A stretch of DNA of 64,000 bases from Minisyncoccota bacterium. Its GTDB lineage: Bacteria; Patescibacteriota; Minisyncoccia; Minisyncoccales; JAGOPM01. The translations under genes and the position numbers were made by a program. Positions 23,269-23,991 of the stretch are shown here, piece after piece. Location: assembly GCA_041651395.1 (NCBI GenBank), contig JBAZJI010000001.1, forward strand, positions 251,920 to 315,919, written 5' to 3'. Within the stretch, counting starts at the first letter, position 1. Each line of letters begins with the position of its first letter. Under the pieces are notes generated by a model. The model was not told where the DNA came from. It was given only the letters and a program-made list of their open reading frames with translations, and searched no databases.

Positions 23269-23533
23269 TAAGTTCTAAATTTTATTGCCTCTTTAATAAT
23301 GCAAAATGCTTTGGCGTTTTGCAGAAACATTAGCGGCGCCCTGCAGCAGAGCCTTCGGCACGCTGCGGCGAATGAGCCACGCTTCGCGTGGATACAAGAT
23401 GATTCAAAGTTCGCTTTACTCGCTAAGAATATCTAAATAATTCGAAGGTGTTGCCCCTGCCTGCCGGTAGGCAAGCGAAGGCTCCGCCAACTGGCGGATC
23501 GGGGGGTGGGTTCTCACCACTCGCCGCAAAACA

Positions 23534-23560
23534 AAAATGCCCACAGAAGTGGACATTTTT
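23534..23560. terminator. bidirectional hairpin, likely terminator of the minus-strand tRNA operon
   Basis: ATGCCCAC-AGAA-GTGGACAT is flanked by an A-run and a T-run, directly downstream (minus sense) of tRNA-Asp. Confidence 0.6.
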
Positions 23561-23563
23561 GTT

Positions 23564-23641
23564 TGGCGCGGCGAATGGGATTCGAACCCACGATCTCCTC
23601 CGTGACAGGGAGGCGCATTAAACCAACTATGCTACCGCCGC
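23564..23641 (-). tRNA. tRNA-Asp (GTC), CCA encoded
   Basis: I folded the cloverleaf by hand: acceptor GCGGCGG/TCGCCGC, D arm GCAT/ATGC with a GG loop, anticodon stem CCTCC/GGAGG with loop CTGTCAC, T arm GTGGG-TTCGAAT-CCCAT, and a 3' GCCA. Confidence 0.85.
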
Positions 23642-23642
23642 A

Positions 23643-23719
23643 TGGTGCCTGGGGGCGGGATTGAACCGCCGACCTTGGGCTTATGAGTCCCACGCTCTGG
23701 CCAACTGAGCTACCCAGGC
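23643..23719 (-). tRNA. tRNA with CAT anticodon (elongator Met or Ile2/lysidine type), CCA encoded
   Basis: The cloverleaf has acceptor GCCTGGG/CCCAGGC, D arm GCTC/GAGC with a GG loop, anticodon loop CTCATAA, and T arm GGCGG-TTCAATC-CCGCC. The G1-C72 pair argues against an initiator. It starts 1 nt after tRNA-Asp. Confidence 0.8.
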
Positions 23720-23795
23720 AGCTGGCCCGGGCCCCGCCCGCTCGACTTGCAAACTCGCCTGTCGGGCATGGCCTGGCAGGCCAATATCTTTCTAG

Positions 23796-23866
23796 TCGGG
23801 GGACCAGGAATTGCACCTGGACCTCGGGCTTATGGGACCCGCAACCTACTATTGGTCCATCCCCCA
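23796..23866 (-). tRNA. non-canonical tRNA-like gene, CAT anticodon, no encoded CCA
   Basis: The 71-nt cloverleaf is TGGGGGA TG GACC AATAGTA GGTT G CGGGT CCCATAA GCCCG AGGT CCAGG TGCAATT CCTGG TCCCCCG A. All four stems form. However, position 33 is C, the D loop lacks GG, the T loop is TGCAATT rather than TTCRANY, and there is a U1-G72 pair. Confidence 0.4.
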
Positions 23867-23991
23867 ATATTGTACCTGCATATTATAAGCAATGAAACGG
23901 ATTTAATCAAGGGGAGATTTGACCGATAGGGAACTTTGAATTATAACTTGTTTGGAACAATTAAAATTAAGGTATAAGAAAGGAGTGTGTT

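Follow-up and report, generated by a model that had tools for sequence, protein, structure and literature searches.

A single-copy tRNA-Met gene of a Patescibacteria (CPR) bacterium, very probably the initiator, with a variant A18-G55 elbow

The locus and its features

The window (the whole stretch of DNA analysed, 64,000 nucleotides) lies on the 957-kb main contig (C1) of an assembly of 1.25 Mb that is 94% complete. Three tRNA genes follow one another on its minus strand, with a promoter-like site in front and a terminator-like hairpin behind (Table 1).

Table 1. Features predicted at the three-tRNA locus (positions in the window).
Feature	Position	Strand	Basis and remarks
Promoter-like site, sigma-70-type (TTGATT, 17-nt spacer, TATAAT)	23882..23910	-	consensus scan, 10/12 matches
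tRNA-Met (CAU), very probably the initiator	23796..23866	-	ARAGORN; Rfam RF00005; orthologue model R1; covariation in 19 orthologues
Spacer between initiator and elongator, 76 nt, G+C-rich	23720..23795	-	long hairpin, -35.3 kcal/mol, z = -2.4
Elongator tRNA-Met (CAU)	23643..23719	-	ARAGORN; Rfam 65.5 bits
tRNA-Asp (GUC), last gene of the array	23564..23641	-	ARAGORN; Rfam 67.3 bits
Terminator-like hairpin (16-bp stem including A-run/U-run), then U-rich sequence	23527..23564	-	directly after tRNA-Asp

The first gene, read on the minus strand from 23866 to 23796 (UGGGGGA UG GACC AAUAGUA GGUU G CGGGU CCCAUAA GCCCG AGGU CCAGG UGCAAUU CCUGG UCCCCCG A), is a 71-nt cloverleaf with stems of 7/4/5/5 bp, the anticodon CAU in the loop CCCAUAA, a D loop of 7 nt (AAUAGUA), the T loop UGCAAUU and a variable loop of 4 nt. 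Its residues include U1·G72, G2:C71, G3:C70, A11:U24, A18, G19 and C33, the anticodon-stem pairs G28-30:C40-42 and U31·G39, and U54, G55, C56, A58 and A73. The gene was called as tRNA-Met(cat) by ARAGORN at 23795-23866, and was matched by the Rfam family RF00005 with 49.9 bits over its full length (1-71), i.e. above the gathering score of 29 across the full cloverleaf model; the covariance model R1, built from 19 orthologues, gave 91.3 bits. In a low-threshold Rfam search of the region, only sub-threshold chance matches were obtained apart from the three tRNAs.

A preliminary description of this DNA had reported the same cloverleaf, loop sequence (CCCATAA in DNA letters), U1-G72, C33, 4-nt variable loop and missing CCA, and had proposed an ARAGORN run as a check; these features are confirmed by the sequence, ARAGORN and Rfam. 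It had also stated that the D loop lacks G18-G19 and that the T loop has lost TPsiC, which holds in part. In the Rfam alignment the D loop reads A14 A15 U16 A18 G19 U20 A21, so that G18 alone is replaced (by A) and G19 is retained; the T loop does deviate, with G for U at position 55 as the sole change, and U54, C56 and A58 are kept.

The -10 hexamer of the promoter-like site ends 15 nt upstream of the 5' end of the first tRNA, and the site is identical in the congener G001. The hairpin after tRNA-Asp, which was missed by a simple consensus scan, has a predicted stability of -21.1 kcal/mol (z = -5.1; 0/200 shuffles were equally stable). The upstream site and the hairpin with its U-rich sequence fit a three-tRNA operon, which the promoter-like site probably drives. 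The spacer between the first two genes usually measures about 6-15 nt in relatives, versus 76 nt here.

The neighbouring elongator tRNA-Met has G1:C72, C11:G24, canonical GG and UUC loops and an encoded CCA; an A31xG39 mismatch stands at the base of its anticodon stem. In several relatives (L017, L015 and L021 among them) ARAGORN places the elongator tRNA-Met one base early, with U...A ends and a U before the encoded CCA, so that these sequences may have an acceptor stem of 8 bp or an atypical discriminator.

The first tRNA of G001, a genome of the same genus, is an identical copy of the gene described here. Directly behind it G001 carries a 107-nt insert (L002:1568-1687) that has 13 nt of the tRNA 3' end (GGTCCCCCGACTA) as a direct repeat at its borders; the focal genome does not have this insert.

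tRNA inventory and identity of the gene

The main contig encodes a full tRNA set, in which exactly two genes have a CAT anticodon, i.e. the odd tRNA at 23796-23866 and its neighbour at 23643-23719. No tilS gene was found in the focal genome, and a tRNA-Ile(UAU) is encoded on the main contig (C1:807240-807314); AUA is thus apparently decoded by this tRNA, without lysidine, a tRNA-Ile2 with CAU is unneeded, and the two chromosomal CAT tRNAs must therefore be the initiator and the elongator.

Two other CAT tRNAs of the assembly lie in an eight-tRNA array (C2:35101-35992) on the contig C2 (85.5 kb, 38.9% G+C). With genes for a terminase large subunit, a tape-measure protein, NrdD and helicases, it is phage-like DNA outside the cell's core tRNA set. 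The preliminary description had proposed an inventory of CAT tRNAs, in which a full canonical set of three elsewhere would speak against the gene; such a set was not found in the assembly, where the only further CAT tRNAs are those of C2. The contig C2 carries nine tRNAs, including a tRNA-Gly(ACC), and its own CCA-adding-enzyme homologue. One of its two CAT tRNAs is initiator-like (68.9 bits with the model of CPR initiators), with U1:A72 and a canonical elbow.

Most tRNA genes of the main contig, like the odd tRNA, have no fully encoded CCA, and a CCA-adding-enzyme homologue is predicted at C1:879633-880007; the missing CCA, previously listed as an anomaly, is therefore uninformative here.

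The determinants of bacterial initiator tRNAs are a 1x72 mismatch, an anticodon stem with three G:C pairs, and the pairs G2:C71, C3:G70 and A11:U24 (PMC7949028). By these determinants the odd tRNA, with A11:U24 and a weak 1:72 pair, is the initiator, in contrast to its neighbour with G1:C72 and C11:G24. It has the CAU anticodon and the A73 discriminator of an initiator, and its A11:U24 recurs in 17/19 orthologues. Position 1:72, where no Watson-Crick pair is expected, is a U·G wobble, which, though weak, still counts as pairing; a mismatch stands here in 85 of 106 orthologues. The three G:C pairs of the anticodon stem (29:41, 30:40, 31:39) are represented by G29:C41 and G30:C40, and 31:39 is U·G. 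As to recognition by Fmt, the tRNA has G2:C71, and at 3:70 a G:C in place of C:G. The gene lies in the same array as its orthologues, has 91 bits to R1, and is the sole initiator candidate on the chromosome. The best explanation, which we hold with high confidence, is that 23796-23866 encodes the single-copy initiator tRNA-Met of this Patescibacteria (CPR) bacterium. An unusual initiator had been among the identities considered before, and it is the one upheld by inventory, determinants and orthology.

It would be very unlikely that the roles are swapped, with the neighbour as the initiator and the odd tRNA as the elongator tRNA-Met. Both tRNAs share the anticodon-stem run G28-30:C40-42, and the odd tRNA is able to pair at 1:72 as U·G; however, the neighbour has a strong G1:C72 together with C11:G24, and in its orthologues 1:72 stays paired as G:C or G·U, whereas the odd tRNA's orthologues mostly lack a pair at this position and carry A11:U24, which are established determinants (PMC7949028).

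Conservation among relatives

By BLAST, the initiator gene was found in 21/41 relatives of the same order (genomes of 0.3-1.0 Mb), and the covariance model R1 gave a match of at least 73 bits in 37/41. The array order of initiator, elongator Met and Asp is kept in most loci of relatives that were fetched with their flanks. Most orthologues start with CGCGGGG and end with CCCCGCAAC, i.e. they have the classic C1xA72 mismatch.

In the alignment of the 19 orthologues, 96.4% of the stem cells are in standard pairs, and changes on both sides were observed in 15/22 pairs. This covariation was reached by 0/500 shuffles, and the pairing drops to 33-47% when the partners are slid by 1-3 columns. The feature is far beyond chance, by its R1 score and by its stem covariation. 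The covariation check in relatives, which had been suggested for this locus, thus returned compensatory changes, and the pattern indicates that purifying selection maintains the tRNA fold of this gene and that the gene is not a decaying copy.

The pair G30:C40 and the tertiary pair G19:C56 are invariant among the 19 orthologues; 13 of them have A:U at 29:41 and 11 have U·G at 31:39, so that the lineage as a whole relaxes the three-G:C rule. For wider comparison, a sample of 106 initiators was drawn from the order and the class. Position 1:72 is C-A in 55 of these, A-A in 26, U-A in 12, U-G in four and A-U in four; the four U·G cases include two genomes with fmt (G152 and G124). A11:U24 is present in nearly all initiators examined. 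C33 occurs in about a third of the related initiators, and within the focal genome's tRNAs in the initiator only. In U1·G72, G3:C70 and C33, features of initiators take forms specific to this lineage, and the weak pair at 1:72 probably does the work for which initiators usually have C1xA72.

The gene is thereby an ordinary essential initiator in an unusual lineage-wide variant form. That it is instead a pseudogene in decay, or a regulatory RNA that derives from a tRNA and has left translation, is extremely improbable, and both candidates of the preliminary description can be set aside. The near-universal positions G18, U33 and U55 are indeed altered, and the Rfam score of the gene is below the 65-67 bits of its neighbours; yet it is the only initiator candidate that the chromosome offers, its position and sequence are conserved across order and class, compensatory changes are observed in every stem, the 'defects' are themselves conserved and coupled, and a near-consensus promoter stands directly upstream. 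The name 'tRNA-like', given to it beside two normal tRNAs, undersold an essential tRNA of standard function.

A tRNA-Ile2 that reads AUA after conversion of C34 to lysidine, also proposed before and suggested by the CAU anticodon and by the annotation of some Ile2 tRNAs as Met, has a negligible probability, given that neither a tilS gene nor the need for a second AUA decoder beside the dedicated tRNA-Ile(UAU) was found and that the acceptor and D-stem features are of the initiator type.

The A18-G55 elbow

The canonical tRNA elbow, with G18 and U55, is replaced in this initiator by A18 and G55, with G19:C56, U54 and A58 retained. The contact between G18 and Psi55 is taught as an invariant tertiary contact that locks the L-shape of tRNA.

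Only two elbow states were observed among the 106 initiators, A18/G55 in 71 and G18/U55 in 35, with no mixed case; the ratio is no frequency estimate, since the class-level sample is biased to A18/G55 by a search model that is mostly of that type, and since 57/151 genomes were without a match at E <= 1e-16. The two states alternate between families, and two species of one genus differ, G004 with AAUAGUA/UGCAAUU and G003 with AAUGGUA/UUCGACU (D loop/T loop). Two unmixed states that switch even within a genus point to a coordinated change, as had been surmised from the focal sequence. The canonical G18-U55 contact appears, from this comparison, to be replaced by a co-varying A18-G55 contact, and the best explanation, in our view highly likely, is that the A18-G55 elbow would be a working alternative to the standard elbow. 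With G19:C56 and U54-A58 retained, the L-shape and the stacking platform for RNase P and the ribosome should persist and are likely retained.

The two genes thought of as possible correlates of the elbow type, truB and fmt, were rejected as such. A18/G55 is found in genomes with truB as well (G012, G014, G018 and G021), and it is found in 47/74 genomes with fmt (64%) versus 24/32 without (75%).

The variant elbow is not restricted to the initiator: the focal tRNA-Cys(GCA) (C1:813281-813353) has A18/G55 too, with the D loop AAGUAGCAA and the T loop UGCAACU. In the relative G030, tRNA-Tyr and tRNA-Thr also have G at T-loop position 55. The initiators of G030 (L018:1506-1577) and G170 deviate further, with the T loop CGCACAU (C54, G55, C58), which would also break the U54-A58 pair.

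A large bacterial radiation thus swaps G18-Psi55 for a strictly co-varying A18-G55 in its sole essential initiator, and such initiators provide a natural test case for the real constraint on the tRNA elbow. They also carry a warning for annotation, as low-scoring A18/G55 initiator genes may be mistaken for pseudogenes.

Formylation, pseudouridylation and the proposed course of initiation

No candidate genes for fmt, def or truB were found in the focal genome (HMM search, and tblastn with the proteins of relatives), which at 94% completeness is to be read as 'not found' and not as proven absence for fmt and def. The same three genes were also not found in the four other genomes of the family (five genomes, 84-94% complete). 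In the order (41 genomes), fmt and def occur as a pair or not at all, and neither was found in about half; in the class, fmt is present in 136/151 genomes. This distribution suggests that N-formylation was lost repeatedly in one CPR order. Because fmt and def were not found in the genome or the family, the initiator methionine is probably unformylated; the gene described here would probably be an initiator tRNA-Met and not a formyl-Met tRNA, and protein synthesis probably begins with plain methionine in the focal genome, in its family and in about half of the order. The Psi55 synthase gene truB was found in only 7/41 genomes of the order, although U55 is retained in most tRNAs; as it was not found here, Psi55 is probably made in no tRNA of this cell.

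In the course that we propose, the initiator would head the initiator/elongator-Met/Asp operon, with transcription from a promoter of its own; its transcript would be trimmed and supplied with CCA by the CCA-adding enzyme; MetRS would charge it by means of the CAU anticodon and A73; and at start codons it would bring methionine, probably unformylated on delivery, into the P site of the ribosome.

The focal initiator appears to have drifted at two Fmt recognition positions. Among 105 initiators with a 3:70 assignment (one row of this tally was corrected by eye), C3:G70 is present in 74/74 genomes with fmt, and G3:C70 is confined to two lineages without fmt. Of the variant positions, only the swap at 3:70 hints at a relaxed recognition by Fmt, and it rests on two events.

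It has to be considered whether the A18/G55 elbow, the weak 1:72 pair and G3:C70 all arose through the loss of Fmt, as adaptations to formylation-independent initiation. The absence of detectable fmt and def here and in about half of the order is in line with this, and so are the two departures from C3:G70, a determinant of Fmt, both of which fall in fmt-less lineages; a claim for E. coli that formylation-free initiation benefits when the T loop has lost rT54 would point in the same direction, and is disputed (review, PMC7949028). We regard this explanation as unlikely, since the elbow type is unrelated to fmt by the counts given above, U·G at 1:72 occurs in the fmt-bearing G152 and G124, and the focal tRNA-Cys shares the elbow. 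The share of initiators with a paired 1:72 is not significantly higher in genomes without fmt (9/32) than in those with it (12/74; Fisher p = 0.19, with relatedness ignored), and fmt loss as the cause of the paired 1:72 is thus unsupported.

Comparison with known initiator tRNAs

The focal tRNA resembles E. coli tRNA-fMet (metZWV/metY) in CAU, A73, G2:C71, A11:U24, G29:C41, G30:C40, U54, A58 and G19:C56, and in that one dedicated initiator exists next to a distinct elongator tRNA-Met; its orthologues share C1xA72 with the E. coli tRNA. In contrast to E. coli tRNA-fMet it has U1·G72 for C1xA72, G3:C70 for C3:G70, U31·G39 for G31:C39, C33 for U33 and A18/G55 for G18/Psi55, no CCA is encoded, and it is probably unformylated.

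With the other CPR initiators of the A18:G55 elbow type it shares the D loop A-R-Y-A-G-U-A, the T loop UGCAAWU and the gene order with elongator Met and Asp. Most of these have C1xA72 or A1xA72 and C3:G70, unlike the focal genus with U1·G72 and G3:C70.

Eukaryotic cytoplasmic initiator tRNA-Met is likewise used without formylation (probably so in the focal case) and has initiator-specific deviations in the T loop; however, A1:U72, A54/A60 and the retained G18/Psi55 set the eukaryotic initiators apart, and there is no orthology. The eukaryotic-type A1:U72 occurs in 4/106 CPR initiators, the focal one not among them. C33 is known from some plant and fungal initiators.

Distribution of the variant design

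No description of the A18/G55 initiator design was found in the literature searched, the reach of which excluded most subscription journals. An exact search with the pattern AGTA-N10-CYCATAA-N13-GTGCAAWTC matched at least 120 species genomes. Among the matches listed, every record that names a lineage belongs to CPR/Patescibacteria; the lineages comprise Paceibacterota/Parcubacteria, records labelled Saccharibacteria, WWE3, Minisyncoccia and other CPR groups. For the 78 named CPR hits among the matches listed, 1:72 is A-A in 34, C-A in 32 and U-A in six, A11:U24 is present in 70, and C33 in 16.

It could be imagined that the A18:G55 elbow is a functional mark, read by CPR ribosomes, IF2 or RNase P to single out the initiator and a few other tRNAs, which would aid initiation without formylation or with a reduced machinery, and which phages would have copied for the acceptance of their own initiators; we consider this improbable. 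The variant pattern was also found on 42 viral contigs of IMG/VR.
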